A stretch of DNA of 64,000 nucleotides from Amoebophrya sp. A120 (GCA_905178155.1 CAJINV010000011.1:493914-557913); one strand, 5' to 3'. Positions 1 to 63,900 are shown, numbered from the stretch's first letter. Notes: a model not told the origin generated them from the letters alone. Program-made: numbers and translations.

Positions 1-3000
1 CTTGACCCGGCTGCGGAGACCGAAACTGATGCCGTGGTTGATGCTGCGGTAGAGGCTAAACTCTCTTCCGAAAAGGAACTGCCAATCACGCGCGGCGACG
101 CACCAGGATGACCAGCTGCTCCTGCTCTCGGAAATGAACCGAAGCCAGACCTGCTCTTGCTCGGGAGGGATCTGGAAAAAGCTCCGCCGGATATCCAACA
201 AAAAAAGATTGTAGGTGTAACTTTTTTGGCGGATCAGCATTACAAGCCTGGCTGGCATGAGAGCAGAAACCTGTCATGCGCAGATAGCAGGCCAAAACGC
301 GCGTGAACGGACCCTGCAATGCATATCCAGCATGACAGACGCAATCATCCTACGTGTTGCGCATCACAAACTTACAGCTAACAATGTTTTTTTCCTGCAT
401 ATCGGAGTTGTGACCACCGCCATTATTGCTGTCGTTGGAATTCCTTCTCCCGAACGAGCCACTGTTCCCACCACCAGAAGAACCTCCACCGAAGGACCCC
501 GATCCACCTCCGAAGGAGCCGTTTGCCGACCCTGGCCCTCCTGGTCCGCCGCCCCCGCTCATGGGGTCGTCTGGGTCCGAAGAATCGGTCCTTCTCCGGG
601 GTGGTTGCTTTTCTTTCTCCTCCGCTACCGTGGTGACCCCGAAGTTCTTATACGCCTCCGGCGTGGGAAATATCCGCCGGTCGATGATTTTGTAGCAGGT
701 AACCTCCTGCGAGTCCGTGTGGTCCACGTCCACCGGGTAGCTGGCCAGGCGAGGCCCAAAGTTGCGCTCGAACAGCAGCTTCAAGGCCTTCCCACCGAGT
801 TTTACCTCCATCGAGGAGTCGCACTTCAGCCACGAGCGACCTGAGGTGTATTGGTCGTTGTGATTTTTGATTTTCAAAATGAACAGGTGAATATCTTCTA
901 CTAGCAGAAGTGCTCGGCTGAGATCCTTTGTGTTGTACCGCTACGTTGTACCAGCACGGCGAATTATCCCGCGCTATAATAAAACCAAGTCCATGTTCAG
1001 TACCGAGCTTCGTATCTTTACTGCCCATGGATCGCACCCGGCTGTCTTCCGACTTCAGCCCGTTCCGCTGTCTCGGCGAGGCCAGCACGCCAGTACCTTT
1101 CGACAGCAAATCCCGCAGTTGGTCCTCCTGCAGAGTCCGGTGGGCAAAGCTCTCCGTCACCTGCATTTTGGTTGCCGACGGAAAGACGCCGATGCTCATC
1201 GCCCGCACATTCCGGTGCTGGCGCGACTGTGCTAGCTTTTCCAGCTTCACGCGGCGCCAGTACCGCGCGTCGTTCTGATGTGCCGCTTTTGCTTTATTTT
1301 CCTGTCTATGAAATGCAAAAGCATCCTATCGTACTCGTATAAATGCATTACAAATTTACTCAGCATGTGAAATATAATTTGTCATGCTGATTTGCCTTGG
1401 GAACAAGATTTGTAATGCAAGACTTGCATTTATACGAGTACGATACTTTTGCACAGGATACTGTCCGGTGGCCGCGGCCACGGCGCGGTCGGCCCCGCCA
1501 GTCGTCTCTAGAGTCTGGGAAGATGCCATATGGTATTGAAAAACCTCCCCACCTTATACTGTAGTTGTAATGCAACTCTGCATGCTGAAAATCTTTCTCA
1601 TGCGGAGCCCCATGAGAAGCATTTTACAGCTGCGCTCTGGAATTTGCCATGCTCCAATCAGCATGATGTGCGAGATCTGTGATGCTACAGGGCTAACTCA
1701 AACAGGACTACTCTACGTGTCCAAACTTGTCATGCAAAACAGCCAAAACTCGTGGATTTGTCTAGCCGATTCCCCATCTTGACTATGGAGTGGGGACGTT
1801 TTTACATAGGATATGCCAGCGCCTTGCCGTAGCTGTCCTCAACTTCGACGGTCAGAAAGTCCCCGACCTTCAGCCTGGCTCCCTCCTGATACGCCACCTC
1901 ACGGGGCAGGCTATCGGTGTGATGCTGATGAATACCTGAAGATTCAAATAGAATAAATATCGGGCGATTTTGAATTCAAAAAGGAGGTGCGTAAAAACGT
2001 CGTCGCAAAAGATGAACCAACTGCTTATGTTCATGTTGCATATTGAAATCATTCGGGTCCACATAATTTTTACCTTGCTCTTTCAAGTCCGCCATTTGGT
2101 GGTACTCCGGGATCACGATGTATCACACAGAAAAAAGTGTTACAGTTACACATTTGTAGTCAATTCAGCAACACAAATTTCTCTGCATGGGAGAGAAAAC
2201 TCGTAATGCAGAAATCCTACGGGGAAACGCCTGTGAAACGAGGCCCCTATGCATATCCGGCATGACAGAGCTTGTCTGTCTTGCTTGGCCTGCAACACAA
2301 TGTGTAACTGTAACACTTTTTTCTTGCGATACGATGTCAAACGTGTTGAGTAGCTGCCCCTCGAGGTCCCGTGGTACCCGGACCAGGGAGCGCTTTGGAC
2401 TGTCCCAGGCCGCACCGTCGCCCGGATTCGTCGTCCCTTCGTCGTCGGCGTTTGCGTGCACGGGCACCGGCTCGAGCCCGCAGCGGTACCGGCCGGCGCA
2501 AAAATTCGCAGGTTGCTCCCGCCGGCACTGGATCAGGGGTGCGGTGCTGCGCAACTTCTGGTCCACGCGAAAGCGCTGGGACTTCTCCTGCAGGGCGCGC
2601 GGCGGCACGGACCGCGCACGTGACTTCCGCGCCTCCACAATGGTGTCGTAGTACCTGCCGCGCCGAAAGGTGTCGCCGAGTCCACGGTAGTTTGGATTGG
2701 ACATCAACCCGTCCTCCTCGTCGTCAACCGGGGATTCATCCGCCGGTGAGTTTTTGCTACTAGACAACGTACTGCTCGTGCGGCTTTTCGATGTTATTAA
2801 CGCAGCCGCATTTTTGTTCTTCGTCATCGCTGCCCCCCTTCGCCGCAGGCTGTCGGTGCTCAAATCCAGGGCCGCGCCCAGGTTTTGCGAGGAAGTAGTA
2901 GAGGTCGGAGTGCCCCCACTCGACGTGGCGCTTCTTTCCGACACCGAGTGCGCGCTCAGCGGACTACTCCCACTGGGTGCGGCAACTTTCGAGTACGCGG

Positions 3001-6000
3001 GCTTCTGGAAGGGCAGGAAGCCGGTCATGCCGCCAATCGTCGCCGCGGAGAGCATGACCACATCGGAGTTTGTGCAGTACAGCAATTTCGTCGAGCTCTG
3101 TTTTAGGTGCAGTTTTCGGTCGTACCGAAACGCCCGCGCTAACGCGCTGTGCAGCCGCGTGATCGGGTTTTTGGGCGCGTCCGGGATCTGGCTCTCGGGG
3201 CCGACCATGCTGTGGCTCCCCCACTGCAGCGGACGGCCGGATTCCCAAGGGGAAACGAGGTTAACCGACCGCCCAATTCCGATCGGGGGTCCCGTTGCCG
3301 ATCTTGATGCCATGTGGTCTACCCCAACAGAGGAACTACTACCAGGCAGTCTTTGCAGCGCCACCTCGCTCAAAACAATAGAGCGCTGAATATCGACCGC
3401 AAGTTCGGGAAGGGCGGTAACCGCGGGGGCGATTTTATTTAACGATGGATGGTTTGTCTGGTCTGTTGAAACTGCGAGGTTGCTAAATTTCGCCGTCAAG
3501 GAATCCAGATTTTTGCTATCCTCGGATATTAGACCACGCCGCTCGTAGCTCCCCACGGTGCGCTCCCGTCGTCTTGGAGTTTCACTTCCAGGCGAAGCTT
3601 GACCTTCATTTCTAAATTGGAAAGAGGACTGCTGTCCAACCAGTGTATTTCTACCTCCTCCGACTACAACAGGCGAGGAGCCGCTTTGGTCGCTACTTGT
3701 ACTACCCGACGTGTAATCCGACCTCTTCGCGATTCCCCGTTTCCACTCCGTCGCGTCGAGAAACGTGCGGGGGTCGATCGTGCGCGATTGCGCGGAGGAT
3801 AACTCGTCACCCGTCGGGCTTCTGGATGCAAATCTTGAGGATTTCTGCAGTCTCGACTCTTCTGCCTCTGCCACCGCGGAAATCTTCGCCTCCGGGGGCA
3901 GTTTGTAGTCCAGCACGGATTCTATTATCCTATGTAGAAACATCCCCACCCCATAGTCAACATGGGGAATCGGCTAGACAAGTCCGCGAGTTTTGGCTGT
4001 TTTGCATGACAAATTTGGGATCGCAGGGTAGCGCTGTTTGAGGTAGTTCAGCAGCGTCACAGATCTAGTATACCATGCTCATTGGCGCATTACAAATTCC
4101 AAAACACAACCAGAAAATGCTTCGGATGGTGCTCCGCATGACAAACATTTGGAGCATGCAGGTTTGCATGACAACTCTGGGGTGGGGACGTTTTTACACA
4201 GGATATCTATCAGCGTCCAGTTATCTTCGTCCAGCGCGTTCGTGCCGTGCGCGACACTGGTCGACATCGCCGGACGATTCACCTCCAATTCGATGTACTC
4301 GCCGGCCTTGAGCGGAAACCCCGGCTTCGCCCGCAGTTGCGCGTCGCTGGCCAGCCGTCCGGCCTCTTTCTTTGCGCCCACCGCGATCTGTTCGGGAATC
4401 TGCAGCTGAAACCGGATCCGATTGTCCAGGTACGTCCCGACCCCCGCGTTGGGGTGCGCCAGCCCGTAGATCCGCTCCAGATCCCGGCGCGAGGCGTCGC
4501 AGGTGTAGAGTCCGCGACAGTGCCCGTACTCGTTCTCTAACTCGAAGACGTAGTCGTGCGCAAAGAGCGAAACCGGGTCGGTGGTTTGTCGCTGGTAGAG
4601 CGTGCTGACCGGCTGCAACGCGTTAGTACTATGGTGTGCAGCTGCGCCTCCTGCTAGTCCCGCCAGTGAGGATTGAGTCATCGTCCCGTAAATGAACTGC
4701 TTCCACTGGTCCCAGGCCCACTGCATGCTCTGGCGGGAGGCGGAGGAGGGGAGATTGTGGAAAAACACCATCTGGTCGTCGCTATCGGCGTCGGTGGTGG
4801 TCATGCTGCTGTAGAGGTCCATCAAAAACCGGTCGCCGGCGAGAGGATGGGGTGCCGCACCGGGTTATGCTGAGTAAAAACGTCCCCACCCCATACTTGT
4901 CATGCAGATTTGCAGTCAGAGGAAGATTTGTAATGCGCATCCCCATGAGATGCATTTCCAATCGTGTTTTGGACTTTGTAATGCTGTAAACAGGATGACT
5001 AGATGGATTTGTGTTGCGGCTGTACTTGCTAAACTGCACGACACTACAGAGAGGAACTTGTCATGCTTGATTCCCAAAACTTCTCGATTTGTGTTGCGAG
5101 ATCCCCATCTTGACTATGGGGTGGGGGCGTTTTTTCTCAGGATACGGGGACCGTGGCGGGGTCGTCGAGTAACCCCGTGATGTATCCCGTGCAAAAGTAT
5201 CGTACTCGTATAAATGCAAGTCTTGCATGACAAATCTTTTTCTTGAGGCAAATCCGCATTACAAATTTTATTTCTCATGCTGAGGAAATTTGTAATGCGT
5301 TTCGACTAGTACGATACTTTTGCAGTTCATATGATGGCCATTTGCACCGGCGTGCTGCCGCGCGACCAGTCGTCGGTCGGGGTCCCAATCGCGCTGCCGC
5401 CTGCGGTCAACGCTCCCCCGGGCGTGGAGGACCCGCTGGTGGCGAGGGAAAGGCCGAGGTCTAGTGTGTTTCACGAAAAAAAAGTTTGTCACGTATCATT
5501 TCAACATCCTTAACTACGTTTAACAGTAACACGACCACCGGGAATAGAAATTAAGTATGCTGGAAGGACCCCCTCGTTCACGAGGTATTAAAAACCGTTA
5601 TTCATTTATAGATATACCACTTTCCTGCACGAAGACCCAGTTCCCCGTCTTCGCGAACTCCTCCGCGGCTTCCGGTGGAAGGACGTCCATCAAGCCTCGG
5701 TGCGTGGTGTCCAACATGTGCTCGGGCAGACTGCCTTGGTCCCGCATACTTCGTGTCAGCTCCGGGTCGCGGATGCACTTGATCACATCGGACCTCATAT
5801 GCCAGTGCACAACTCCCCCTCCCCCACATTTGTGTAGCATGAACGGCAATACAAGCATCAGCAAGAGTGCCGGTTTTGCATGACAAATTTGCAGTGGAGT
5901 GTAGTGCTATTTGGGCGACCAGAACTTCTCATGCAAACAGTGCCAAGAGGCAAAGGGTGGATTGGGTATTTTGCATGACAAATGAGGGGGAGGGGGAGTT

Positions 6001-8631
6001 GTGCACTGTCATACCTCGAGGCGCCCATGTAGTCGGTGCTCGTCGCGAAGGAATCGCTCCTGCCACCCACCATCGACGTCGGCGACGAGAACCCAGAGCC
6101 CTGATCTAGGCTCAGCGGCCCCGGGCCCGAGCCCAGCGAACGCGCGTAGGGACTCATGGCGGGGCGGATAGAATTCGGGCTGCCGGACGAGGAAGCGTAG
6201 CCGGACGAGCACCGCGTCTCGCAGTTGCTGACGGAATCTCCATATGCATTGCAAAAGAATCGCACTCGTAGTAATTGCAGTCACGCATGACAAATCTGGT
6301 TCCTCAGCTCATTCAGCATTACAACTTCCATTTTTCCTTCTGGAAAAATTTGCAATGCTATTTTTTCTGCTAGTACGATAATCTTGCAATACATACTCCA
6401 ACTCCAGGGTTGGCGCTGCTTCCATTCGAGGTGAACATCCGGCGGAAACTCTTCCCGAGTCCCTTCAAAACGCCGACGTTGCAGCCATCCTTGAGGGTGG
6501 TATTCAGGTCATCGTCGTCCTGGATAAAGCTGCCGCAATTGTTCAACCGCTCCTCTTTGATAGCCACGCGCACCTGCTCGATTAGTCCGTAGAAGCTAGG
6601 GTACAGGAGAATCACGTCCGGGGCGAGGCAGGACATCACCCCGCGCCGCCCCCCGAGCCCGGCGGTGTTATCCCGCTCACCGTTGACAAGTCTCTCCGAG
6701 ACGAAAAACTTCCAGCGCGGGCGGTTCCGGGCGGCGGAACCAGTGCTCGCGGTAGAGCCGACCTGGGATAAAGAAATACAGATTTTTGTTGATAAGCGCG
6801 ATGAAAAGTGATTTTCAACTGATTCTTTGTTGGTCCTATCGCTGGCGTTAACGATCCATATCTTCCTAGATGAAAATTTAGTGAAGATGCGACCGGCACT
6901 TCTCATGATTTTGCGCTTTTAAAGTTTTGATGTACCTTCGCTGCGCCCTTGGGTCTGCTCTTGCTGGCGTCTGACCCGGGTGTGGTTTGGCGCGACCAGG
7001 AGTTGAGGTCGTCGATATCTAGGTCGGAACCCCCTCCCCCCAGGAAGTCGCCCGAACCTCCACCCATCCCGTACACTTGCGAGTCTTCCACGGTGAGCAA
7101 TTTGGATCGCAGCGTCGGCAGGGCTTGCGGCACCTCCGCCTCCCGCACTCCGGGCACCCGCTGCAGCATGCGTGCGCGCAGGTACTGGCCGGGCCGGAGC
7201 TCCGGCATCGGTGCGGACTCGCTGTCATCCAACTCCTTGCTGATCTGTTTCAGCCTTTCCTCGGTGACCAAGGTCGTCGTGCCCCCGCCGTTATTTGTGG
7301 AATCAAGGGAGGACAGACTTTGGTGGCTCCCGGAATTGGTGGACCCCGACAGGATAGAGGAAGCCGGCAGCGACTCGGTGCGACTCAGCGACTTTGGCTG
7401 TTGACTCGGCTGGCTCAGGTAGGAAGAAGAGGTTCCTGCGTTGTCGATGTTGTTGTGCAAGCACAATTTAAAACTACGAAAACGGCAGAAGCGCTAGTAG
7501 GTGCTATCCGACTAAAGGCGCTCGCAAATCTAGTACATTGGAAGGCTTTGCAGTCAAAAATCTAGTTTTCTTCTTTCTACATCGGTCTTGTTTATAACAT
7601 CACGATCACCGCTACATCACTAACACTAGAACGGTCGTCTATGGGCCTCGTTGTCATCACACAAAGCAATCTTCAAAACGATCGAGTAAGTGAGTACTTG
7701 TCAACCCCTGAGAGCCAGACTCCACGACAGCCTTCCATTGTGCCTTGGAGGCTGGCAGGTGCAACACGACCGGGCGATCTTCCGCTAGTCGCAGCGCCGG
7801 GCAGACGTAGGCTCCAAAACACGCCCCGCCCTTCGAGTTTGTCCCCACCGGCGCGCGCCGACTCTGGACCAGGGTTATTTGCTCCTCAACCAGCAAAGTG
7901 GACGAAAGCACGAGCGTCGTGAGCACGCTGGCGAGTTTATTATTCCGTAGTGTTCTCCTCGCAGAGCCGCCGTGTCGCGCGGTCATTTCTCGGCGGTAAG
8001 GGATGGTGTTGGTAAAGTAGTTCAAGTTGCCATCATTACTGCTGGTTTCATCTTCCACCTCGACATAATTCATTTGCTGCATCGCTGTCGACGCCGAATT
8101 CTTATCTACGGGAGCACAAGTAAAACTACTTCTTCTCTGGGGTAGTTCTTGCAAGAAAAATGCTGGTGGTGGCGGTGGTGTTCTAGTTCTTCTTCTCTTC
8201 GTCGCAACAAAGGAGTTCCTTTTGGTGCTGGTAGAAACAAACCCACTGGAGGAGGACGAACTGCGGGCTGAAGTGGAACATACGGCTCGAGCGGGTAGAA
8301 AATCTTCTGCAGCGATAATTGCCCGGCGGGTCGTGGTCCTGATCCCACGACGGCAAAGAGAAGACCTACTTCTCGAACGAGTACCCGGGATTGCGCTGCA
8401 GCGGTTTTTTCGTCCTGCGTGCTGCGGGGGACTTGATGACGAGGAGGATAAACTTGAAGATGTTCTTGCACTAAAAAGGCGGAGTTGCGAACTGCGACTG
8501 CTCCTGCCTGTTCCCCGGCTACAACTACTCGGGTTGTCTAGGTCGTCGTGGGACAAAACTTGAACCTGAGGATCTTCTTCAAAAAAGGTAGTACCGGAGC
8601 TGCATGAGAAAGAGATCGACGTTGAAGACAT
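1..8631 (-). CDS. Large multi-exon hypothetical protein, Ser/Gly-rich; runs off the window at its 3' end; inclusion of the 7657-8631 exon is uncertain
   Basis: ORF pieces 6903-7466, 6370-6906, 5858-6265, 5598-5864, 4079-4825, 2165-3949, 648-1250 and 350-877 appear to join after removing 9 introners and GT-AG introns (e.g. 6763-6935, ~5461-5617). Checked join: ...AAATGQ|ENKAKAAHQNDARYWRRVKLEKLAQ. No recognisable domain. Confidence 0.6.
192..401. mobile_element. Introner/non-canonical intron, family D-like (degenerate)
   Basis: TAT...ATA ends; imperfect TIR aaaaaagattgtaggtgtaa/ttacagctaacaatgttttttt; DR ccgga/tcgga. Confidence 0.7.
1307..1460. mobile_element. Introner, family B (TGCAAAAG-ATCGTAC TIR)
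   Basis: TAT...ATA; DR ctgtc; frame restored on removal. Confidence 0.9.
1529..1813. mobile_element. Introner, family C (AAAAACGTCCCCACCCC TIR)
   Basis: TAT...ATA; DR tgcca; similar to 58769-59051. Confidence 0.9.
2121..2331. mobile_element. Introner, family D (GAAAAAAGTGTTACAGTTACAC TIR)
   Basis: TAT...ATA; DR cgatg; similar to 39403-39616. Confidence 0.9.
3926..4205. mobile_element. Introner, family C (opposite orientation to 1529-1813)
   Basis: TAT...ATA; DR tctat; TIR ccccacccca/tggggtgggg. Confidence 0.9.
4866..5144. mobile_element. Introner, family C
   Basis: TAT...ATA; DR cgggt/cgggg; similar to 21670-21948. Confidence 0.9.
5183..5331. mobile_element. Introner, family B
   Basis: TAT...ATA; DR tgatg; TIR tgcaaaagtatcgtact/agtacgatacttttgca. 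Confidence 0.9.
5798..6013. mobile_element. Introner, family E (GTGCACAACTCCCCCTCCCCC TIR)
   Basis: TAT...ATA; DR cctca/cctcg; perfect TIR of about 22 nt. Confidence 0.9.
6243..6395. mobile_element. Introner, family B
   Basis: TAT...ATA; DR ctcca. Confidence 0.85.
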
Positions 8632-9799: not shown

Positions 9800-12450
9800 T
9801 CAGTGCCCGTGTCCCGCGTGGCCCCCTGCGGCAGCGGTTCCCCCATGCCCCACATGTCCGCCGCCAGAGCAGTGTTCGTGCTGCAGTAGCGCGAGGCCGA
9901 TCAGGACAGCGCCAAGGACGAACAAGCCCAGCATCTTCAGAGCATGCACCGGATCCGCCGCCTTCTGTGCGCCCACCCCACCCGTCGGCGGGACCGCACG
10001 GCCCATGCACTATGCATTGCAAATATGTAGTCTGGGTCGACGGGGAACGTGCAGACTGTGTAGTTCTTGGGTGTTTTGCATTCCTGCAGAATGATCTGTA
10101 AGTGGTACTTTAGTAACCTGTCATGCGTGGCTGCACTTCAGGCAAATTACCGAATCTCTTCATCCGCACGTCCGCATCACAGATTCACTTATGCCAAAGC
10201 CCAGACTACATATTTGCAGTGCTTATGCATTCCACGCACGCCAAATACGCGTAGGTACCACCGCCGAAGGAAACGATGAGCCCGATGGTGACCTTGTCGT
10301 AGTCGTATCCCACGAAAAAACTGCTTCAACACTGTGATGATTTTGCAAGTAGATCTGCATCTTCACAAGAAGTTTGTTACACATGACAAAGAAAACTTGG
10401 CATGCGTGCTTCCTAAGGGAAAACACAGCTAAAATTCCAATGTCTTGCAGGTGTAGCAACACAAACACACGACACTTGCGTTCCGTGCTATGCATCACAA
10501 GTTTACAGTGAAACAGTTTTTCCTTGCGATAAGTCGCTCGCCAACGCCAGTACGCCGCCCAGCATGACGCTCAAGCCAGAGCAGAAGTTCAATCCCAGCG
10601 CTTTCACCGGCGACAACCCGCCCGGGCCGGTGAGCATCTATCAAATGCAAACATGTCTGGGTCTGGAAGATTCCGAGATTTGTCATGCAGTTTTTCCAAG
10701 CTCCGCCAAGTCTGTAGTGCAGGGCCTAGCATCACAGGTTCTGCAGCCCCTTGGTGATGCCTACATGAGAAATGCCCTCTCAGCATGGCCAGAACAAATG
10801 GGACCCTTTTGCAAGTCATGCAACACAGATTTTTGTATGATCCGCAACACACATCACAAGTTCGCATCCTTCCAGACCCAGACATTTTTGCAGTTGATAG
10901 CATCAGGTAGTCCGCGATTTCCTGCGCAATCTCGTGCAACACGGCCCCGAGCGCGACGATCCACCCGCGCGTGTGGCTGCAGGTGAGAAACGCGGCGCCG
11001 ATGAAAATGCCGTCCGCGAAATTGTGGAAAAAGTCACCGAGCAAGACGGACACTAGTAAAGTGCCGGACAGCTTCTTCAACATCGGCTCCTCCTCCACGA
11101 CCACATCCTGCGACGCAACGCCGCCCAGCTATGCATTGCAAAAATGTCTGGGTCTGGAAGGATGCAACTAGTAATGCTAATTGTGGATCGTGCAAAAATC
11201 TGTGTTGCATGAATGCCAAAAGTTGTCCACTTTTGACCAAGTTGAAACGAAGTTTCTCATGCAGATTAAGCATGATAGGAATCTCACAGAACCTGTCATG
11301 TTAGGTCCTGCATTCAAACGACATGGATCATGGAAAATCTGCATGGTAAGTCTCGGAATCTTGCAGACCCAGACATATTTGCATTTGATACCAGCTCAGC
11401 CGCGGCCACTTTGTTATGCACCGGTGTTCCGTCCTCAATAGCTGCACCTGCTGGTGCAGCTGCTGCACCTTGCCCCAGGCACAACTGGAACAAAGAGGAA
11501 GCCAGCGGGGGCAAGAGGAAGCCGACCAGCAGTGCGGTGCCCCACAGGAAGACAACGGTGCTCTCCTCCGCGCTCTTCATGCCGTCCTGGATCAGATGCG
11601 TGGCCTCAAACCACATGAAGTATGCCGCGGCGGCCAGCAGCGCCCCGGCCGCGAACGCGGAAGAGCCCGCGATCCAGCTGTTTTCATGCGTCTTTTTCGC
11701 ATGCGCCGTGTTGAAGTCGTCTCCCTCTTCCTTCTTCCCGCAAAGCAGCGTTCCGGCGACGAAAAGGACGCCCGTGAAGGCGATCAAGTTGACCATCAGG
11801 CACGCTAACAGCATCTCGCCCCAGGGTTTGTGGTCGTGGTCGTCGTGGGCAGCCGCGGCTGTGGTCGTGGCTGCGTGCGCTTCGTGCAGCTTGTGCGCCG
11901 CGGCAATCACGTGCCCTTCCCCGTCGGTGACTTTCAAGTGCGAGAACACCGTGGAGGAATTAGAGAAGAGCAGGATGTGGCTCGCGGACGACAGATCCAG
12001 CTTGAAGAGCTTCATCGGGACCGTCGTCGAAGCGGAAGACGCAATCAACCGGTACGCGCAGGTATTATTCGGGGTGAACGTCAACTCCGAAGCGGCGACG
12101 GACGCCGGCGGGAAGGTGTCGTACGGGTTGAGCAACGAGGTGACGTTTTTCACACACCCATCCCCGTCCTCCGCTTCGTGCAACAGTTCCTTCGCGGTAT
12201 CCTGCACGGCGTGGTGATCATTGTCAATCACTGCCTCGGCGATGGCGGCGGTGGCCGTGGAAGTGACCACGAGGAAAGGATCCGTGGTCGCGGCCTCGAG
12301 CCACAAAAAGTACGCGCTTTCGGGGGTGTTGTAGGTGGCGCCCCAGTTGATCTGCCCCTCGTGTCCATGCGCGTGCGTCGTGGCCTGGCCCGGCGTGCAG
12401 GCCAGCAGGAGGCCTGCTCCGAGCCGCGTTGCGAAAGATGTCGACCTCAT
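9800..12450 (-). CDS. ZIP (SLC39/LIV-1-like) zinc/metal transporter, paralogue 1; 4 introner-type introns
   Basis: Signal peptide (MRSTSFATRLGAGLLLAC), His-rich segments, multiple TM helices, ZIP motifs GDFFHNFADG and LHEIAQEIADY, His-rich C-terminus; ATG 12450, stop 9800. Confidence 0.9.
10011..10225. mobile_element. Introner, family G (TGCAAATATGTAGTCTGGG TIR, related to A)
   Basis: TAT...TTA ends; DR tgcac/tgcat; perfect 19-nt TIR. Confidence 0.85.
10306..10531. mobile_element. Introner, D-related variant
   Basis: TAT...ATA; DR agtcg; TIR gaaaaaactgcttca/tgaaacagtttttc. Confidence 0.85.
10639..10899. mobile_element. Introner, family A (TGCAAAAATGTCTGGGTCTGGAAG TIR)
   Basis: TAT...ATA; DR gcatc. 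Confidence 0.92.
11130..11390. mobile_element. Introner, family A (reverse orientation relative to 10639-10899)
   Basis: TAT...ATA; DR ccagc. Confidence 0.92.
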
Positions 12451-14706: not shown

Positions 14707-14816
14707 CCGGATATGCAGCACCATCCGGATCGTCTAGTGGCCGTGGCCGTGGTGCGGCGTCCGGATATGCAGCACCATCCGGATCGTTTATCAAACTCGT
14801 CTAGTGGCCGTGGCCG
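14707..14816. repeat. Local duplications at the 3' end of ZIP paralogue 2
   Basis: ccggatatgcagcaccatccggatcgt at 14707 and 14761; cgtctagtggccgtggccg (includes the stop codon) at 14731 and 14798. Confidence 0.8.
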
Positions 14817-52210: not shown

Positions 52211-54045
52211 TTATTTCTTCTCCTGTTTGACCGGCGACGGCGCGGCTGACGTAGTAGCACCCGCTGCTAACCCAGCGGAAGTAGGCTTGCCGCTGATCCC
52301 CCCAGCACCACCGGCGACCGGTTTGTTATTATTCCCCTTTTTGTTGGACTGCACGCTTTTCACTCGCTGCATCAGCGCCGCGGGCTTCAACTTCCACGTC
52401 TGCACTGGCCGCCACCATGTATGAAAGCGTCAGGTTTGAAATCGACATAGTTGAAATGATTTGTCATGCACAAAATGGATACCAGTTGGAAGACCAATTT
52501 CCAAGCGGCGCATGACAAATTTTCCTAGCACCGGAATCCAATTTGCCATGCTGTTTGGGCAAAGAAGACTGCTCCTCTCATGCTACTCTAACAGCACATT
52601 GCATAGCCCTAAACAGGCTCACAATCGGTCTCATATGCCTGCTCCCTAGTACAGGCCTGCAGTACTTTGCATTTTATGCATCACAAAATTTTCGATTTTG
52701 TCGATTTCGATCCTGACACATCCATACCAAGGGGAGTGTCCGTACATCCGCAGGTAGGTTTCCGTATCAAGTGCAAATATTTTTGAATATCTGGAAGACT
52801 TGTGATGCTGTGTTTGGACTCTAAAAAAATCTGTATTGCATGAGCAGCAAAATAGGAGTCCAACTCTTGCTACGCGAAGAGGGCATCTGTAATGCGGGAT
52901 AGGCATCATCAAGACGGCCTCAAAAAATCTGTGATGGAAGGGCGTACAACATAGACATCATGGCTCATGGGAAACGTGCATGACAAGTTCGCATCCTTCC
53001 AGACCCAGATCGACATTTGCAACGCATATTCCGAATACTCGGTCAACTCCGAATTCTCCGCCCGCAGAAATCGCCACAGCCGCCACTTCCTTTTCTTCTT
53101 CGTTGTACTAGCGGAGTTGTCTTTTTGCTGCAAGATCTTCCCGATGTCCAGACCGTACTCCTGATTTCGGGTTTGTGGCAGCAGTTGGAACAATTCCTGG
53201 TCTTCTTGCGTGTTTGATGTCCATTGGTTGGTATTTTTAGTCGTCGTCCTTGCTACTTTTGATACTGTAGTCGATGGATTACTATCTTCTGCCCGGTCTA
53301 GTCGTGTTTCCCGAATTGTTGCGCCGTCCTGGTCGTCGTCGTTGAGCCCCTCATCGTTTGCTGTCGCGCTTGTAGTTGTTCTCTCGCCGTTTATTTCAGC
53401 AACTGCAGAGTGGTTCGCTCTCGCGCTTTGTCCGCTTTTGCATGCGACGGCGGCCTAAAACAAGTGGTCGTGTGTTTTCCTTTTCGTGCAGTGTTGGATC
53501 ACGTTGGCATAAAGAGCAAATGAACGGCATTTTTCAGATGATGATATCATGGTGACTACTACCCACAGCTGGTGCCATGAACAAACGAAACTCGCAAGGG
53601 CATTTCCAACACAAACTGGTCACAACAGAAGCTCGTAGTCCTACGCCTAGTACTTTATATATACCTCCTTCCCCGTCGATCCTCCCGTTCCAGCCTTACA
53701 CGCATCATCAAAACTCTCCTCCAGCAGGGTGGTGTTCAGAAAGCTCTGGTTCTTCTTGGTTGGTCGTGATGTTTTAATAATGTTCCCGCTGGGTTTGCTG
53801 TCCTGCTCCTGGACGAGTTCATCTTGAGCGGCACTTTCTGCTCCACTTCTGGGTGCGAAAAACGCCCCCACGCCCACCTTCGGGGTCAGGATGTTTTTCT
53901 CGATGGTCTTGGAGTTCAGCACAAAGTCCCGCTTCACCTGGATAAACTTTTTGTCCCACTCCAACTTCTCAATCAGCGCCCGATTCCGCTGGTACGGGCT
54001 CTGTTGCGTCGCTAAATGCACACGCGTTTTGCGGCTGTTCCACAT
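52211..54045 (-). CDS. FAM183/CFAP144-like flagellar protein; 1 probable GT-AG intron plus 2 introners
   Basis: N-terminal QRNRALIEKLE...FVLN and C-terminal PQTRNQEYG...SELTEYSETYLRMYGHSPW resemble FAM183 motifs; join HSPW|WRPVQTWKLKP is in frame. Confidence 0.55.
52420..52726. mobile_element. Introner, single-copy family K (GTCAGG...GAAATCGACA TIR)
   Basis: TAT...ATA; DR ccatg/ccaag. Confidence 0.85.
52765..53028. mobile_element. Introner, family A
   Basis: TAT...ATA; DR ttccg. Confidence 0.88.
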
Positions 54046-54985: not shown

Positions 54986-57900
54986 TCATCCCGTGAACGC
55001 CGACATACTCGTTGGGGGTTTCAGGGCCCGCATTTGGCGCACAATCGCATCCACCTCCTCGCGCTGCACGGCCAGTTGGTTCTCCTTCTGCCCCAGGAGT
55101 TTTTTCAACTCGAAGATTTCGTGTTTTTGGATCTCCAACTCGGTTTCCAGGGTGATCTCCTTCTTCTTGGCGGTTTGCTGCATCGCCTGCGTCTTCTGCA
55201 GCAGCTGCTTCTCCAACAGGGCCACCGTGCTGGCCAGCTGCCGGAACTGCTGCGGTACGGAACTCGACTGTTGGTCTTTCGTGGACACCACCAGCTGCGC
55301 TAACGAGTCGTTCTTGTCCTGCAGCTCTTTCACGTCCTGCTGCAGCCGGTCCTTCTGCCGCACCAGCTCCGCGTTCTGCAGCGTCATTCGCGTCAACTCC
55401 GTCTTGGTCGCGAGGTCAGCTTGTGTAGCAGGACCGCCGATGACAGTACTTGAAGTCGTTTGGCCATCTTGTTGCGCACCATAATTCATCATTTCAGAAC
55501 CAGTTTGCCTGGTTTTGTTGTTCGGCGCGCCGTGGTCACCAGGAGCTGTGGTCCCTCGTCCCCCCGCCCCAGGCACGGAGTTGAAGAAGTTGCTCCAGAT
55601 CTGTTCGCCCGAGCTCCCCTGCTGCAGCAAGTCTTGCAGCAACAAAAGCCATTCGACGTCCTTCTGCCCCTTGCTCCGGCCGAAGAACAGCGTCAGGGTT
55701 TCCACCTCCACCGGAGTTAGGACCTCCTGGGCGACGTTCAGGGTCTTCGATTGGAAAATATCCAAAAAATCCTGCCGCGACACCGTGCCGGAGCAGCTCG
55801 GATCCTTCAACCGAAAGGCGTCCAGCAGTTCCTGCCACTTGTTCATCACATGCAAATACTTATATCTGGGTCGGGAAAGAACAACTTCCTTGTGATGCAA
55901 GCCTGCGAATAATGAGCTCACTGCAAAAATAGGTGACCAAGCATTGCAGGTTTTTGAGAGAGCTCCTGCGTCATGCGTATTCCGCATGGCAGGCTCCATT
56001 CTTGCATGACAGGCAAGAGGATCTTTTCGCGCCTAAGCATCACAGAGTTGTTTGAGTTGACGCTTAAAGTTACTTATGCCAGACGAGCATCACAAACCCG
56101 GCATTCTTCCAGACCAAGACATATTTGCCATGCATATTGTTGCTGTCCTTGAGCTTCCGCAACGGGTGCAATACACTGGCGAAGGAGCCTGGGTTAGTTG
56201 TTAGACTTAGGTTGCAGATGAACAATACACGCTTGTACAAATGAGCAGCTCAACAAGTCAGTTGCAAAAACAAAAAAGCTCGAATAAAATTGATAAGTAC
56301 CTAGCTGCGGCGTCGCCCCTTGCAACAGGAGAGTGCGCAACTCCGGCCAAAACACCTTCCCACCGGGCACACACAGCAGTGCCGCGTCCTCCTGCAGCTG
56401 CTTCAGCTCCGGGCCCCAGGGCCCGCACCGCTGCACGCTCTTGAGAAACTCAAACCAGGGGATGCTCAAGCCGTGGTGGCTGTGGTGCACTTTAAGGTCC
56501 TGTTCCAAGATCGGGAAGTCCTCTGCGACGAAGCGGTTTTCCCGCCACCGCTCCGCGAACAGCGCGAACGCCAGCGTTTGCTCGCCGATCTCTATCAAGT
56601 GCAAAAATGACTGGGTCTCGAACATCGGAAGATCTGTCATGCACACCTGACATGACCCATGACGGCTGTGATGTATGCCCTAGCATTACAGATTTTCTGA
56701 GTGCTTCTTGATGCCTATCCTGCATGAGAAATGCCCTCTCCACGTGCCAAAAACTGGACTCCTATTGCCTGTCATGCAATTTGTTTAGAATCCAAAAATA
56801 GCATTACAAGTTGCATCCTTCCAGACCCAGGAGACATCTTTGCATTTGATAATCGCTGGTGGCCGTCCAAAGGTGTCTTCGGTCTCCGGCGAGAGGCTCT
56901 CTGCGACGGACAGCTTTTGCAACAGCGCTTGGTCCAGCAGCGACCGGATGGTCGGCATCGCGAGAAAAAATCCCCCCTCCCCATATTGACAAGGAATGTC
57001 TTATTCGAAGATTTGTGTTGCTGATTTGTGGCCACGAATCGTGTCTGGCTTGCCAGAAGGCAACTCCACAGGCTCCGCCGCATTATGCAGGCGGCTTGTC
57101 ATGCTGCTGGGACTACCGCGCGGGCGTTTTTCATGCCAAGCGCCTAGGCCAAAGCCTCTCTGCTCAGGCCTGATATGGGTCTGCAGTCCTCTCCAGCAAG
57201 ACAAATCTGATTTGTGTACGCAAATCCAGCATCAGAAACTTCGTTTCGATATGGGGAGAGGGGATTTTTCCTTTTGATAGTCGGCAAATCGTTCTTCTCG
57301 ATCGCGACCCGCATATGAAATGCAAAAATGTCTGGGTCTGGAAGGATCCGAACTTGTGATGCGCATTGTAGAACACAGAAAAATCTCTCATGCATAGGTA
57401 GCAAAAGCTGCCGACTTTCTGTCACCAAAATGGGGGACTTCTCATGCGGGTTCGGCATTGCGGAAGCTTCTCGAAACCTGTGGTGCTAGAGCTTCCATGC
57501 CAGAGCTTCTGCGTCATGCAAAAACAGCATGACTCTTCCAGACCCAGACATTTTTACATTTGATACCGCACGCGCTGAAGAAATTCCGTCGTGGGGTAGG
57601 GCCCAGCATCCGCGGCTTGCTTCCTGCGGATCTGCAGTGCATCCACAAACGCCAACAGGTGGTTTTTGTCCTGCACGCGCTGCGACTGCTCAGCCTTTCG
57701 CCGCATTTCCTGGTCCGCAACATCTTCTACATTCGCGGCTGTTGTTCCGGGCGGCTGGTAGGACTTCTGCTCCAATAAGTCGCTCGCGGCCTTCTCGAGG
57801 ATTCCGAAGCACAGCGCGAACGGCTGGGCCAAAAATTTCCGCATCAGAGACGGCGTGAACTGCAGAAAATCCCGGGCTTTGATCGATTGGGATTGCGCAG

Positions 57901-60900
57901 CAGTTCTTGTTATACCACCTTGTAACTCTTCGCGATAACCATCTTCCAATTCCGTGAACACAACCTTTTTCGGCGGATAGCTGCTTCCTCGCGCACTCGT
58001 GTACTGCTCCTGTCCTTCACTTCGTCGTGGTGGAGCGGGCTCTCTACTTCCGGTCGCGGAGCTCCTGTCGTAGAACATTCCAGAAGTACCGTCCTCAGCC
58101 TGCTCCACTTCCATGTTTATTGCAGAGGGCGAAATAGCGTTGTTACCATAGTTGTACCCACGTTTGTTGTTCTTCCTACTTGGCGTCGCTGTGTAGCTAT
58201 CGTCGTTGTTCAACCGCAGAACCAGGTCCCGATTTCGCACTTCCGCCTCCTGCAACCGCCTCTCCGCCTGCGCCAGCGCTTCTTCCAGGTCCAGCACGCG
58301 CTTCGCCCCGGGCGCGCCAGAATGCGCCGCGTTTGCCCGCAACGGAGCGGACTGCGGGACCAGGGGGTCCTTGCTGCGCAGCTTGCCGAGGTAGTAGCTT
58401 TTCTGGTGCTCCAGCTGCTTCTCCAAGTCCTTAATGCGAGCCTTCCACACCTGCTCCGCGTGCGCGACGTCTTGGTGGGGGTCGTTGCTGTTAGTACCTG
58501 TGTGCCCCGACGCACCAGAAGTGGTCCCGCTTTTGATGTTCATCCTCCCGGCCGCACTGGTACTACTTCCTGAGGAGCTTGATCCTCCCGCCGCCCCGCC
58601 GGTCATGCGTTCGCGGTACTTGGCGGACTCCATTTCGTACTGGAGCTTGTCGTACTGCGCCCGGAGCGCGCGCAACCTCCGGTCAAAATCCACCTCCTTG
58701 TCTTCTAGCTGCTGCTTCAAACTCACGTTCTCCTCCTCCAGCCCCTGTTCCCGCTCCGACTGGGTCTGTATCGTATTGAAAAATGCCCCCAACCCATGGT
58801 TGTATATGCAAATCTGCATGCTGAAAATGTTTCTCATGCGGAGCCCTATGAGAGCGCTTTCTAGTAATGATGTGGAATTTGTCATGCTTCAAACAGCATG
58901 ATATACTAGATCTGTGATTCTGCTGCGCTAGCTCAAAGAGCACTACGCTGCGAGTGCAAATTTGTCATGCAAAACAGGTAAAGCTTGTGGATTCGTCTAG
59001 CCGATTCTCCATCTTGACTATGGGGTGCTGGGGACGTTTTTACATAGGATAGTCTTCCGGTTCTCTTTTTCCTTTTCCGTGTCCACGGCGGCGAGCAGGT
59101 GCAGGATGCTGGTGTCCTGCGGCAGCTTCTTCTTCACCAAGGCCTGCAATTCTTCGATTTGTTTCAAAAGCTCCTTCTCGCGTACATCGGCCTTCCGCCC
59201 GGTCAACAGGCGCTGACGGAGCTGCCGCGAGTCCTTTTTCAGGCTCCGGTTCTCCTCCTCCAGCGCCTTTGCCTTCGCCCGGTCCTCGTCCATCTTCAGC
59301 TGGCTCTCGATGTACCACTGCAGCTTGGCCTGCATCTCGTCCTTTTCGATTTGCCACTTCTTCTCGGTCGCTTCCTCCCACAATTTTTTCTGCTCGCCCA
59401 TTTCCTTCTCGGACAGCGCCGGTTTTTTGACCAGCTCGCCCTCTAGCATCTTCTTGGCCTCGCGCGCGTTTTGGAGTTCCGCAGAGAAAGACTCTGCCTT
59501 CTCCTTCCACTCCTTCACCTGCTCGAGCAGCTCGTTCATTTTCAGCGCCTTTTCGGCCGATGTCGTAGAAGTTCCACCCGCCCCGCCCGCGGTGGAGTTG
59601 TACAGCGTGACGCCGAGACTCTCCCCCTGGAACGGGTGTTCGTCCAGCGACTTGCGCAGGAACCGGTTCTTCTCTTGCACCGCCACCGCCGCCTGCTGCT
59701 GCGCCTGCACCAGCTGGGTGGTCAAGTGCTGGACTTCCCGCTCTAGCTGCGCGGTCCGCCGGTTTACCTCCTGCTGCATCTGTTGGAACAGCGTCGCGGT
59801 GGAGGCATCATTCGTCTCGTCGGCTCTTTGTTGAAAGCCTTTGTTTTTGTGCCGGCTCTTGTCCGCCGCGGAGGAATTGTCTAATGGCGACTCCTGCGCC
59901 CCGGCGAGGTCTGCGGGGGAGGAAAGCAGCTTTTGTGCGCCGGTCGCTTGCTTCGGAGAAGGCGATGATGTTCCTTTCCCGTCTATCTGCTCTCCCGCGC
60001 CTGCACTAGCGCCCGACGCAGCTGCCGCAGCCAACTCCCGATCCCGCAACTTCTGTTCTTGCTCCAGCAAGTCTCGCTCGCTCCGCAGCTGTTCGTTTTC
60101 CGCCCGGGTGGCCCCCAGCGAGGTCTGCAGCGTCTGCATCTCCTTGTCGTGGGCCTCGCGGATCTGCTGCAGCTGTGTGTCCCGGTTCTTCGTGATTTTG
60201 CGCAGCTCCCGGTTCTCGACCACCAGCTTTTCGTTCTCCTTTTCGTACCCCCTCATCAAGGTTTCCACCATGCTCTCGTCCGGATTTAACCGCAGCCCCG
60301 GCCCGCCGATTTCCTGCTGCTGCGCACCCGGACGACCGGAAGCTGGTTGGGATGTCGAGTCGGGTTGTTCCTCGTCCCCTTCCCCTAGCCCAGCCGCGTC
60401 GGCGCTTGAAGCAGCGCCCGGTGCTGGTCCTTTAAGATTCAGTGCGGCGGACTGCTGGCTTGTTGGCAACATTGCGGCGTGAAGATCCTCGTCTACGCGG
60501 TCCTTGGCGAAGAAAGCTTTTCTCTCTTGGTCGAGCGCCGCGACTTTCTTGCCCGTGGAAGCCGCATTCGCGTCCTTGACCTGCCGCCGCAACTGCGCGA
60601 TCTGTAGAAAGCAGGATGGAAAGTCGACACGTTGGTGGTCGATTTTGATTTTGAGTTTTATGCATTGTAGTTTTTGATCATGATCATGGGTGAAGATCTT
60701 TTTGTTTTTGGAGTTTATGCATCAAAAAAGCGGAACTAATTACAATTCCACTTTCTCTACCTCTTCCTCCATCCGCATGGTCTCGTCGTGCAGTCGCTCG
60801 TTCTGCTCGTTGTATGAAAATGAAAAATCCTCCATCCCCATATCGAAATGGAAATTTGTGATGCTAAGTGGTGGTCACAAATCCCGTTATAATGCTAGGA

Positions 60901-63900
60901 GGGAAGGGATGCGGATTGTAGTGCTGGCTGGCGCAGGAACAACGCCGTGCGTCCTCAGCATGACAGGGAGCAACTGGAAACGGGAAATAGCATCACAAAT
61001 TTCCTCCACACGAGGGAAGAACTGCGTTTCCTAGCCTTGTAGCAATAAAGCCGATTTGTGTCCTCGAATACAGCAACACAAATTTCGTTTTCCATATGGG
61101 GAGGGGGGATTTCTCCTCACAATACGTTGAGTCGTTTCCGCATCTGCTCCGAGTCCAGAAATTTCTGCTCTACTTTTTTCATGCGGCTCTCCCACTCCTC
61201 GTGCACTTCGTCGCGAAGCTCGCGCTTCTGTTCCCAGAGCTCGCTCTATGAGAGTGCACAAATCCCCCACCTGCCGTTCATTTGTAAAGGCAAAATGCCA
61301 AATCCACATCCTTCCTAAAGGCACTGTCTCCTGCATGCCAAATTGTGGAACCTCAAACACAGCTACAATCATCCGCGTGCAGATTTGATGTCATGTGAAA
61401 GCCACTTATCTGCCCGCGCTTGTGTTGCTGCTCATGATGTGATAGGACAAATGAGGGGGAAGTAGGGGAGTTGTGCACTTTCATACGTTCTGTTTCACCT
61501 TGTCCGCGCGCTCGGAGTCCAGCTCCTTGCGCAGGTTCCGCAGCTCCTCGCGCTGGAACTGCAGCTCCTGTTGGTGCTTCCGCTCCACCTCTTCGAGGTT
61601 CGCCCGGTTGTTGCGCACCTGCTCGTCGAACTCGGCCTTATGCACTGCAAAAGCATCGTACTCGTACTTTACTAAAAATCGCGTTTATGCAATACAAATT
61701 TTTCTGTCAAGTTCAATCCGCACTACAAATTTTATTTCTCATTCTGAGTGAATTTGTCATGCGATTTCTACTAGTACGGTACCTTTGCTGTTCATAGTCC
61801 TCCCGGCCCTGCAATTTCATCCGGAGTTTCACGTTTCGGGCGTCCAGCGCCGCCACCTCGGCCTCCATCTTGGCCTTGCCGGCCCGAAGCTGCGAAATCA
61901 GCTCCTCCAGCTGGGTCACCTTGCGGTGCAGTTCGGAAAGCTGCTGGAACGCGGTGTTCAGCTCCTGCTGCTGCTCCGCCGTCTGAGGGCCGCGACTGTA
62001 TTTAGTGCAGATGTGATGAGGAGGTTTTTCCCGAATCATTTTCATGCAAAATTGAAAAAACTATGAATCACTATCATTTTCCGAAGTAGGTCCTACGGCA
62101 TGCGGCTAGCTACACATAAGTACCCCGGCTGCGTGCGGGTGGTGGAGGTGGAGTCCCGTAAAAATCTGTCGGTGGATGATCCTGAGGAAAAACGGGGCCC
62201 GCGGTAGCGCGGAGGCTTCACGACGGAAATTTTGCTTTACATTTAGGTTTACACAAACCAACAAGCTTTCCGGGTTGCGTATGACAAGCTTGGCCCCGCT
62301 GTGTGCTAATCTGGTTTAACAAGTGAAGGTGCAACATCGCAATCAGATTGGTAGAGTTCACTAGCATGCCCATCAATCCCGGTTGGTGTTTCTAGCAAGC
62401 ATGCCAAATTCCGTTGTACTTCTAGTACTTATGCGGCGTCGCAGGCCACGTTTAGTTATTTTCACGAAGGATATTGACGGAAAGATGATGTCCATGCTCT
62501 GCAACACTCTGCTTCCGGGCACGAAATTCGTTTGCTGGGCGGACGAACGGACGCTTTGACTCTGGCTGTCCGGCGGCGGCGCGTAGCGGTGGCGCGTGGT
62601 GGTACTCGTCGGGCGGCTGTTGCTCGTCGCACCATTCATCTGAGCCCCCCCGGCGGTCTTCGCCTTACCGGTCGTGCGCGCGGTCGAAGTGGTGGATGAG
62701 GGGGGCCCGCGGCTGCTGGAGGACGCGGCCCGGACAACCTGAGAGGACGTCAGGCTCGCGTTCACAAACCCGGCGTTGCTATCCGGCAAGGACATTCGGG
62801 GCGCGAACTGGTCCTGGAATTCCATTTCCGCGAGCACCGCGGCGCGCTCCTTGATGCGCTGCTCGAGGGCGGCCTCCTGCAGCTCCAGGGACCGCAGACG
62901 AGAGGAGGAGTCCAGGCTTTGTTCCGCCTCGAACAGCCGACCACCACTCGGAGCGCCGTCTCGCACCTGGCCCGCCGCACCTCCGCTGGCCGTCGACGAT
63001 GAAGGAGGTGGGACTACTCCTACTTTGGCGCCGAACAGGTCTTTATCAAATGCAAAAATGTCTGGGTCTGGAAGAATGCATGTTTGTCATGCTTGTGTGG
63101 CATGACTCTTAGACCTGTCATGCACGTTACCCAAGAGCCCCATTTTTCTGTCATGCCGAAACGCTGTTTGTCATGCAGGATAGGCAACACCTAGAAGCTC
63201 AGAAATTTGTCATGCTAGGCCAGCACTTGTGGCCTCCTCACGCTACGCCTCTCAGCATCACAAGTTTCCAGACCCAGACATATTTGCAATGCATAGTCTT
63301 CTACCGACGGTGGTGCTGCCGCGGTGGTCGACGTCCCGGGGTCGAGTCCGAAGCCTGGTTTGCTGCTCGCATATCCGAAGAAAAAAGTCTTACAGTTACA
63401 CACTCTGATGGAAGACAAGCAAGACAGACAACCTCTGTCATGCAGGGTATGCGTGCCAGCCTCATTTTGTTCCTGTTTCCGCTTATAGTCTGCGCATCAC
63501 AGGTTTTCTATGCCATGTCGAGCAACTTTGTGCTGCAGAAACTCCAACAAATGTGTGACTGTAACACTTTTTTCCTGTGATATCGCAGCCTGTTGCAGCA
63601 CTCCCGAAGATCGTTCCTGAAAAGAAGTAGTAGTAGTTCCAGCAGGAGCAGTTGTACCATTTATTTCCTCCACTCCGCTTGCAGCTGGGCCGGCGGCTCT
63701 TTGCTCAGCCGATGTTCTTGTTCTACTTGGGGCAGCTGATGATGATGATGATGATGAACCAGCACCGGGTTTCAAAATGTTATTCCCTGTAGTTGCAGAA
63801 GGTACTTCTCCATCTACTTTGTCCTTATCAGCACCTATTGTAGAAGTTTCCGCAGTATAATAATCTCCAGCTTTTTCTTCCACCTTCTTGCCGCTGCTCG

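Follow-up and report, generated by a model that had tools for sequence, protein, structure and literature searches.

A helically phased octamer common to the introner families of Amoebophrya sp. A120, probably read on double-stranded DNA

Background

Introners of Amoebophrya A120 have been published by Farhat et al. 2021 (PMC7789003) and Gozashti et al. 2025 (PMC12130899). According to excerpts of PMC7789003, no transposase was found in A120, its U1 snRNA was not detected, and it is left as a question how tens of thousands of introners move without a transposase or a family-specific end motif. Among other elements, IS1535 (IS607 family) carries helically phased motifs 20-60 bp inside its end, and the subterminal repeats of hAT/Hermes elements are short motifs in both orientations; both kinds of motif nucleate the paired-end complex (excerpts of PMC6188088).

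The DNA analyzed here, referred to as the window, is a 64,000-nt stretch of the genome of A120, a marine parasite (CAJINV010000011.1:493914-557913). An exon product of the window matches a record of Amoebophrya sp. A120 with 100% identity. Its introners, and those of other contigs, share an octamer that we consider to be a family-independent site on one face of the helix, with a 10.4-bp period, probably read on double-stranded DNA by the complex that mobilizes introners. Introners were known before; the motif, its phased lattice and its periodicity were not found in the literature searched and are to that extent new.

Methods

Window elements were detected by a motif-blind scan for TAT...ATA ends and a 5-bp duplication, which returned 43 elements (10,063 nt). 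Nine more were added by hand, several of them from regions that had been looked at for their motif matches; the hand-extended set comprises 12,621 nt and the remaining window 51,379 nt. The full set holds 415 elements, 363 of them from other contigs, in 30 clusters, and the clusters made in this analysis are what we call families. All counts cover the window and 129 loci (526 kb, including two phage loci). Loci were chosen by an exact match to the family 0 terminal inverted repeat (TIR), by which family 0 and the conservation of its TIR are inflated.

Results

Introners of the window

The window contains 52 introners with TAT...ATA inverted ends and a 5-bp target site duplication (TSD) (Table 1). 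Across families the TIR consists of TAT, seven variable bases and an A-run, as seen in an end logo for which TAT was a search condition. The border duplication is perfect in 305 of the 363 locus elements and has one mismatch in 58, the search having allowed at most one. Introners are high-copy and non-coding and possess a TIR and a TSD, as do MITEs and other non-autonomous TIR DNA transposons. Word depth in a DNA run reached tens of thousands over the elements vs ~25 over exons. No nested introner was found among the elements examined and no allelic or orthologous copies among the loci, and viral contigs yielded only two chance matches, in a phage gene, and zero for two other TIR patterns.

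Table 1. Introners and related elements of the window, with motif sites (offsets from the element start where signed; > and < give orientation) and removal from RNA
Position	Family	Motif sites	Removal from RNA	Remarks
192..401	4		removed in RNA contig	TSD CCGGA/TCGGA
1307..1460	1		inferred from exact length of X6 record 24
1529..1813	2	1566, 1596, (1645), 1678, 1728, all TGT.. on + strand	inferred from exact length of X6 record 24	minus-strand transcript reads sites as GCAUBACA
2121..2331	4		joint 2114-2331
3926..4205	2	four, each UGUVAUGC on transcript	bridged 3920/4206 in X6 record 24	orientation opposite to 1529
4866..5144	2	+33, +64, +112, +194
5183..5331	1
5798..6013	5		bridged in X6 record 25
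6243..6395	1		bridged in X6 record 25
10011..10225	singleton			hand-added
10306..10531	4
10639..10899	0
11130..11390	0
15043..15294	0	six exact	joint skips 257 in X6 and X3
15365..15653	2		joint skips 294
15743..15892	1		joint skips 155
16096..16360	0	no intact 30-34 pair	joint skips 270
16496..16654	1	pair stretched to 36 bp	joint skips 164
16729..16948	old introner-like intron	zero (no PWM hit)	joint skips 225 in X6 and X3	TAT...ATA ends, decayed TSD
17056..17267	4		joint skips 217
17565..17818	0		joint skips 259
17918..18169	0		joint skips 257
18506..18664	1	no intact 30-34 pair	joint skips 164
21670..21948	2	+33, +112, +145, +194
24930..25169	6
25293..25557	0
25595..25846	10
25940..26255	2			degenerate; hand-added; left end approximate
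26284..26518	5
26780..27051	0
27171..27324	1
27746..27895	1
27950..28225	0			degenerate; hand-added
28286..28547	0	+43>, +75>, +91<, +130<, +215<
28575..28930	singleton			degenerate element; hand-added; ends approximate
37644..37897	0
39403..39616	4
39664..39938	2
50126..50386	0
52420..52726	7
52765..53028	0			hand-added
55844..56136	0			hand-added
56593..56851	0
56956..57279	3			hand-added
57314..57565	0
58769..59051	2
60813..61124	3
61247..61485	5	degenerate only
61639..61796	1
62180..62473	singleton	degenerate only		degenerate element; hand-added
63044..63295	0	six exact
63372..63582	4

An octamer concentrated in introner bodies

Exact octamer matches in the window number 140 (78 TGTNATGC and 62 GCATNACA). 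An earlier note, made by reading the window by eye, had described such octamers as concentrated in introner bodies and rare elsewhere, and the counts agree: 134 matches lie inside the hand-extended set (10.6/kb) vs six outside it (0.12/kb), and 119 of the 140 lie inside the 43 motif-blind elements. The enrichment also holds over composition-matched backgrounds, as the 134 compare with 4.2 +/- 1.9 in dinucleotide shuffles of the elements (maximum 12 in 300), 12 under a 3rd-order Markov model and 43 under a 4th-order model. The six outside matches start at 1918, 11412 and 15666, in exons, and at 30365, 30684 and 48151. Three RNA-confirmed GT-AG introns gave zero PWM hits for the motif. Outside detected elements in the loci the motif density is 1.3/kb, which likely stems from undetected or truncated elements.

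With its 5' extension the motif is AAAYY-TGT[ACG]ATGC, and 413 of the 415 elements carry a site; its variable position in element bodies is A in 270 cases, C in 642, G in 338 and T in 9, and the variants TCT.. and ..TTGC are tolerated. The forward copies placed by the earlier note at 1566 (TGTAATGC), 1596 (TCTCATGC), 1678 (TGTGATGC) and 1728 (TGTCATGC) were recovered; the copy at 1645 is correctly positioned but is a one-mismatch site (TGCCATGC). Sites occur in both orientations genome-wide, as claimed, but not in every family: family 2 is one-directional, with 130 sites on one strand vs 3 on the other. Presumed resemblances to Sm sites and to RBFOX, PUF, ApiAP2 and Sox-Oct motifs were discounted, since strand-indifference combined with phasing is accounted for by none of them.

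Spacing and helical phase

Same-strand site pairs at 31-33 bp were observed 23 times vs 2.7 expected; 14 of 15 subfamily consensuses contain them, as do 9 of 10 families. The 109-bp family (family 8) has two sites only, spaced 32 bp. A period of 10.4 bp among 85 same-strand pairs was equalled in none of 2000 permutations. It persisted when the 28-35 class was dropped (p = 0.001, 61 pairs) and when each family was represented by a single consensus (p = 0.02, 34 pairs). On same-strand pairs the 11.0 period of duplex RNA scored negative, and element length is not periodic at 10.4 (R 0.13). Opposite-strand pairs are offset by half a turn in either arrangement, about the same axis (fitted on the same data), and therefore all sites fall on one helix face. 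The first inward site is mostly 33-34 or 43-45 bp from the end (p = 0.001 over 15 consensuses; 0.07 over 10). Site order and orientation vary between families, yet phase is kept.

This periodicity supports helically phased DNA sites, one of the options raised in the earlier note. Introners share with subterminal repeats a short motif inside the ends that is phased and conserved. The phasing shows a DNA reader but does not say which.

Conservation and loss of phase across copies

The motif changed at a rate of 0.031 vs 0.079 for the body on terminal branches (0.39x) and 0.007 vs 0.037 on internal branches (0.19x), and masked bodies and spacers of different families were unalignable (one marginal match, E = 0.044), which supports the proposal of a cis-signal kept across families. 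Between the closest copies the motif/body ratio was 0.39-0.49, which also fits selection after insertion. By the TSD clock, motif change went from 0.030 to 0.038 and body change from 0.075 to 0.082, a weak trend toward neutral decay in 48 copies.

Spacing shifts of 2-8 bp numbered 241 on terminal vs 27 on internal branches, compared to 90 vs 31 for shifts of 1 bp (Fisher p = 1.7e-4), and phase is therefore held in multiplying lineages and freely lost in resident copies; 136 of the 415 copies have no intact 30-34 pair, and removal from RNA was seen for four of these. This purging of phase-breaking indels from propagating lineages, together with their abundance in residents, points to transposition.

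Removal from RNA

In X6 and X3 run contigs ten elements are skipped, and seven further elements are removed in X6, two of these by length arithmetic. GT-AG introns retained in X1 contigs are absent from those of X6, although no run is recorded as RNA; from the raw-read runs X9 and X10 only 85 and 2 reads mapped, almost all of them continuing into unlike sequence. GT/GC-AG boundaries are possible for only 15 of 227 elements.

A host chromatin protein might instead read the phased sites, whether for host benefit or as general packaging or marking, for instance by wrapping the element or by tagging it for co-transcriptional removal whichever way it is oriented. Phasing at the DNA level that spans the whole body, a single motif serving all families, motif conservation on terminal branches and in close pairs, and the lack of a known transposase are all compatible with such a reader, and strand-independence would solve the problem of either-orientation splicing. 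We nevertheless regard this as unlikely, as the motif is almost missing from host DNA outside the elements, resident copies tolerate phase-breaking indels, and one motif-less and three dephased copies were removed from RNA.

Recognition of the motif in pre-mRNA by an RNA-binding splicing factor, which would thereby define the element as an intron, is improbable and already largely refuted. In its favor, the motif is limited to spliced non-canonical introns and missing from the three GT-AG introns, nearly every element has a site, and U1 snRNA is undetected in A120 (excerpts of PMC7789003). Among the 227 elements with a strand call, however, transcripts carry 346 UGUVAUGC and 317 GCAUBACA forms, which is no bias, and of elements with one form only, 45 carry one and 40 the other; the strand-specificity of an RNA splicing enhancer or RNA-protein site was thus absent from these transcripts. 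The family 2 introners at 1529 and 3926, with opposite motif forms, were both removed from one contig. The element at 16729-16948, which has zero sites, was also removed, so that in this one case the motif was not required. The cut position is tied to the element ends and its distance from the motif varies, and a 10.4-nt period with a half-turn offset would be meaningless on single-stranded RNA. The octamer is thus not supported as the recognition signal of a splicing system, the role for which it had been put forward.

Common descent and RNA folding

The motif might also be inherited from an ancestral internal repeat and survive as a neutral relic; all families have the terminal signature in common, and the 31-33 bp pair could be a single ancestral module. 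We give this even less credence: a motif changing at 0.19-0.39 of the body rate refutes it, barring a mutational cold spot at the motif, different families cannot be aligned in spacers or masked bodies, and site order and orientation differ among families with phase kept. One ancestor with neutral motif decay, named in the earlier note as what would overturn its idea, is with the same reservation at odds with these rates.

In predicted folds the paired fraction is higher for motif bases (0.75) than for the rest of the body (0.60), and in several families inverted sites with a separation of 15-17, 35 or 47 nt are able to pair. The notion that the sites are internal stem partners folding RNA (or single-stranded DNA) to bring the ends together is nonetheless the least credible and is refuted as a general role, since site-site pairing reached only 38% of 628 sites over 150 sampled folds, the variable position showed no covariation (complementary in 184 of 498 cells vs 182.1 expected from marginals), pairing needs no single fixed sequence across families, and family 2, being one-directional, cannot pair site with site, its sites being mostly partnerless in the predicted folds.

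Transposase search and insertions

Pfam searches that covered 110 of the 116 ORFs of at least 280 aa (~0.6 Mb) detected zero transposase, integrase or RT families, a protein search using the longer proteins gave no match, and the translations of five long TIR-bounded candidates, read by eye, gave no sign of an autonomous element. A protein binding the motif was not found in the sequence covered.

Insertions of +6 and +3 are abundant and are shaped like excision footprints. Among 32 private 6-nt insertions, 15 are a 5-nt duplication plus one base, which suggests excision at the DNA level with a 5-bp stagger.

Discussion

In our preferred reading, a DNA site used by the mobilizing complex, the sites would be occupied by a sequence-specific DNA-binding subunit, which may be the binding domain of the transposase itself or a partner. 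Bound sites would lie 1.5 or 3 turns apart, the first ones 3 or 4 turns in from either end, and the subunit may bend or wrap the 110-320 bp element so that its two universal TAT-N7-AAAA ends meet. Joining of the ends would lead to cutting and then insertion with a 5-bp stagger. Families would be free to vary the inner TIR and body provided that ends and lattice stay, and splicing would rest on the end hairpin, with the motif not involved.

A broader proposal, which we put forward tentatively, is that an undescribed cut-and-paste machine without a recognizable transposase reads this universal one-face lattice rather than family-specific TIRs, such that possession of the right ends and lattice might suffice to turn any sequence into a mobile intron; excisions might leave frame-preserving +6/+3 footprints, about one per kb, as a direct cause of the lineage's rapid protein evolution.

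A shared phased DNA site would explain how one machine serves some 2,000 families, and would divide the functions of the element between a DNA code used in movement and an end hairpin used in splicing. The lattice offers ready bait (wild-type, mutated or dephased element) for isolating the missing protein, as well as a rule for telling live from dead copies. Should the footprint-like insertions be confirmed, they would speak for excision and against the copy-paste view in excerpts of PMC7789003, and would tie introners to the exceptionally rapid divergence of proteins in the genus.

The published A120 introners match those described here in their inverted repeats (TAT, seven variable bases, an A-run), short direct repeats and removal from RNA, and the family lengths of the 2025 dataset (~106, 149, 208-227, 252-261, 278 and 305-321 bp) match our families. 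The excerpted texts of PMC7789003 and PMC12130899 deal with ends and direct repeats only, without an internal motif, spacing rule, periodicity or excision footprints. Euglenid nonconventional introns (excerpts of PMC11282704; see also PMC12501133) likewise lack GT-AG and have TSD-like repeats and TIR-like ends that base-pair in the RNA, but their signals are at the ends and act in RNA, whereas the A120 motif is internal and behaves like a DNA feature. MITEs with functional internal sequences (cited in PMC2872659) are also non-autonomous, with a TIR and a conserved interior that can enhance transposition; they are not introns, and the excerpts of that source report no cross-family phased lattice for them. 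Judging from the excerpts of PMC6188088, the motifs of IS1535 and hAT elements each belong to one element family with a known transposase, whereas the A120 motif spans at least 10 families whose inner TIRs differ; unlike A120 introners, IS607 elements lack both TIR and TSD, and unlike these subterminal repeats the A120 lattice covers the whole body under a 1.5/3-turn rule.

Element set

The window's inserts correspond to the introners described by Farhat et al. 2021 (PMC7789003). A search blind to the motif, based on inverted TAT...ATA ends and a target duplication (TSD) of 5 bp, found 43 elements in the window, and nine degenerate elements were added by hand. A metagenome scan with a single TIR pattern gave 129 loci (L001-L129; contigs JACKZZ01...), from which 363 additional elements were extracted under the same rule as in the window. 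Subfamilies were common to both sources. All 415 elements were grouped into 30 clusters, and 15 subfamilies had at least four copies. Every window element with a strand call (38/38) lies in a minus-strand gene, consistent with the co-oriented gene clusters reported in PMC7789003. Other features of the sequence are collected in the table. The two ZIP-type transporter paralogues listed there carry different sets of introners. The near-identical family-0 end occurs in X9 raw RNA reads with different flanks, and these reads are otherwise unmapped to the window; family 0 is therefore also present in the organism or sample of run X9.

Features of the window and of metagenome loci
Feature	Position	Description
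ZIP-type transporter genes	window 9800-12450 and 14800-18900	two paralogues, 71% identical
Family-0 element end	window 28499-28547	near-identical end in X9 reads
Decayed element-like stretch	window 30228-30437	inverted ends; seems to lie outside a long reading frame; carries two motif sites, 16 bp apart
Insert region, ~3.7 kb	window 40368-44106	five copies of one exon-border sequence; further tandem and inverted repeats; no Pfam matches in two ORFs
Exon-border sequence copies	starts 40368, 41201, 42783, 43491, 44071	
GAAGT satellite	near window 41250-41365	within insert region
Part of insert region	window 40392-41222	no motif sites
Copies with unequal duplications	window 192-401, 16096-16360, 16729-16948, 18506-18664	define the cut
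Long element	L023:3862-4492	nearly motif-free interior
Long element	L035:6017-6988	nearly motif-free interior
Long element	L074:765-1461	nearly motif-free interior
Long element	L010:5307-5763	nearly motif-free interior

An octamer conserved across introner families

Exact matches to the octamer in either orientation number 140 in the window, with 119 inside the 43 motif-blind elements and 134 inside all 52 (10.6 per kb in elements versus 0.12 per kb outside); dinucleotide shuffles of the elements gave an expectation of 4.2. The extended site reads AAAYY-TGT[ACG]ATGC-W, with T almost excluded from the variable position (9/1,259), and a position weight matrix trained on these same elements matched 413 of the 415. 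When sites were masked, bodies of different families were unalignable except for one marginal match. Among 14 subfamilies with at least six copies each, the per-site change rate of the motif was 0.031 for terminal and 0.007 for internal branches, compared to 0.079 and 0.037 for the body, while change at the motif's variable position resembled that of the body. The earlier note had proposed both an enrichment within introners and a signal kept across families, and these results uphold both. The octamer is a real cis-code within a known element class, and apparently an unreported one. No published report of the motif, its period or the footprints described below was found, although subscription papers, theses and supplement figures may hold them; the literature compared included accessible parts of bioRxiv 2020.10.14.339549, PMC11282704, PMC12166617 and PMC2872659. 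Of the 58 rows for A120 in supplementary file 8 of PMC12130899, 22 were compared, and these are mostly labelled 'TIR DNA, unknown'.

Site spacing follows the DNA helix

Spacings were counted with every subfamily consensus entered once. Same-strand pairs 31-33 bp apart occurred 23 times versus 2.7 expected, in 14/15 subfamilies and 9/10 families. Across 85 same-strand distances of up to 140 bp, periodicity was strongest at 10.4, and none of 2,000 permutations was equally strong; the period persisted without the 28-35 class (p=0.001) and with one consensus per family (p=0.02), a period of 11.0 scored negatively, and the window by itself gave 10.3. Opposite-strand pairs clustered at 15-17, 34-35 and 45-50 bp with a half-turn offset in both arrangements. 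The two arrangements share the same local axis, obtained by a fit to the same data, which lies close to the G in TGT or in ATGC. Counted from the element end, most first sites that read inward fall at 33-34 or 43-45 bp, a phasing that was significant with 15 consensuses (p=0.001) but not with 10 (p=0.07). The spacing rule was glimpsed in the earlier note as gaps close to multiples of 10, and the note's suggestion of helically phased DNA sites is supported: the sites form a lattice with one-face geometry on B-form DNA. The four long elements in the table, of 450-970 bp, keep their ends and outer sites around an unrelated, nearly motif-free interior.

Removal from RNA appears indifferent to the motif

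Ten elements were skipped exactly in contigs of runs X6 and X3, with a single duplication copy left each time. GT-AG introns kept in X1 contigs are missing from X6 contigs, so that X6, whose recorded type is a guess, behaves as RNA. X6 record 24 bridges element 3926; from 1301 to 2331 it has 226 letters, the length left of 1,029 once elements 1307, 1529, 2121 and one GT-AG intron are subtracted. Sites in the family of elements 1529 and 3926 are one-directional (130 to 3) and these two copies lie in opposite orientations; one transcript therefore carries only GCAUBACA in one element and only UGUVAUGC in the other. Reading frames gave a strand call for 227 of the 415 elements, and strand-indifference holds across these as well (346 versus 317 for the two transcript forms). 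Element 16729-16948 has no motif site, yet is removed. An intact pair (two sites 30-34 bp apart) is missing from elements 16096, 16496 and 18506, and these are removed too. The splicing recognition signal favored in the earlier note is not supported by these observations, nor is its stem-partner alternative: in predicted folds, only 38% of sites have another site as their partner, and paired sites display no covariation (184 versus 182.1 expected of 498). The motif behaves as a DNA-level code rather than a splicing-level one.

On the transcript, all four copies with unequal duplications fit an intron that begins 1 nt before TAT and extends 4 nt past ATA, irrespective of the bases at the cut; this places TAT at donor positions +2 to +4.

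Footprint-like insertions

Among private insertions in element bodies, the 90 of 3 nt and the 32 of 6 nt form peaks, with 42, 37, 32 and 19 insertions of 1, 2, 4 and 5 nt. Of the six-nt insertions, 15/32 duplicate 5 nt with one extra base in between (X5-N-X5), and 48/90 three-nt insertions duplicate 2 nt with one base in between (X2-N-X2). In sequence outside elements, offset 6 gave 766 exact 5-nt repeats in the loci versus 282-349 at offsets 9-18, and 74 in the window versus 29-59; the X5-N-X5 excess there is about one per kb. By their shape, the +6 and +3 insertions look like frame-preserving excision footprints of an element with a 5-bp stagger; decayed hexamer duplications are a possible alternative.

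Discussion

Spacing shifts of 2-8 bp numbered 241 on terminal and 27 on internal branches, and shifts of 1 bp 90 and 31 (Fisher p=1.7e-4). Phase was kept in lineages that went on multiplying and lost in resident copies; an intact pair is missing from 136/415 elements. Between the closest copies, motif change is still 0.39-0.49 of the body rate, and this conservation argues against a pure transposition role, while the TSD clock leans weakly toward neutral decay; as copies run to thousands and at most 106 per subfamily were sampled, terminal branches include pre-insertion time. The main rival, in which a host chromatin protein reads the lattice, is considered unlikely. We favor, with some confidence, a putative DNA-binding subunit of the mobilizing complex that would sit on the lattice and bring the universal ends together. 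No transposase was found in the 0.6 Mb of analyzed sequence, nor was one found in A120 according to PMC7789003. In its proposed role of uniting the ends, the introner lattice may be likened to the phased motifs of IS1535 and the subterminal repeats of hAT elements, as described in PMC6188088.
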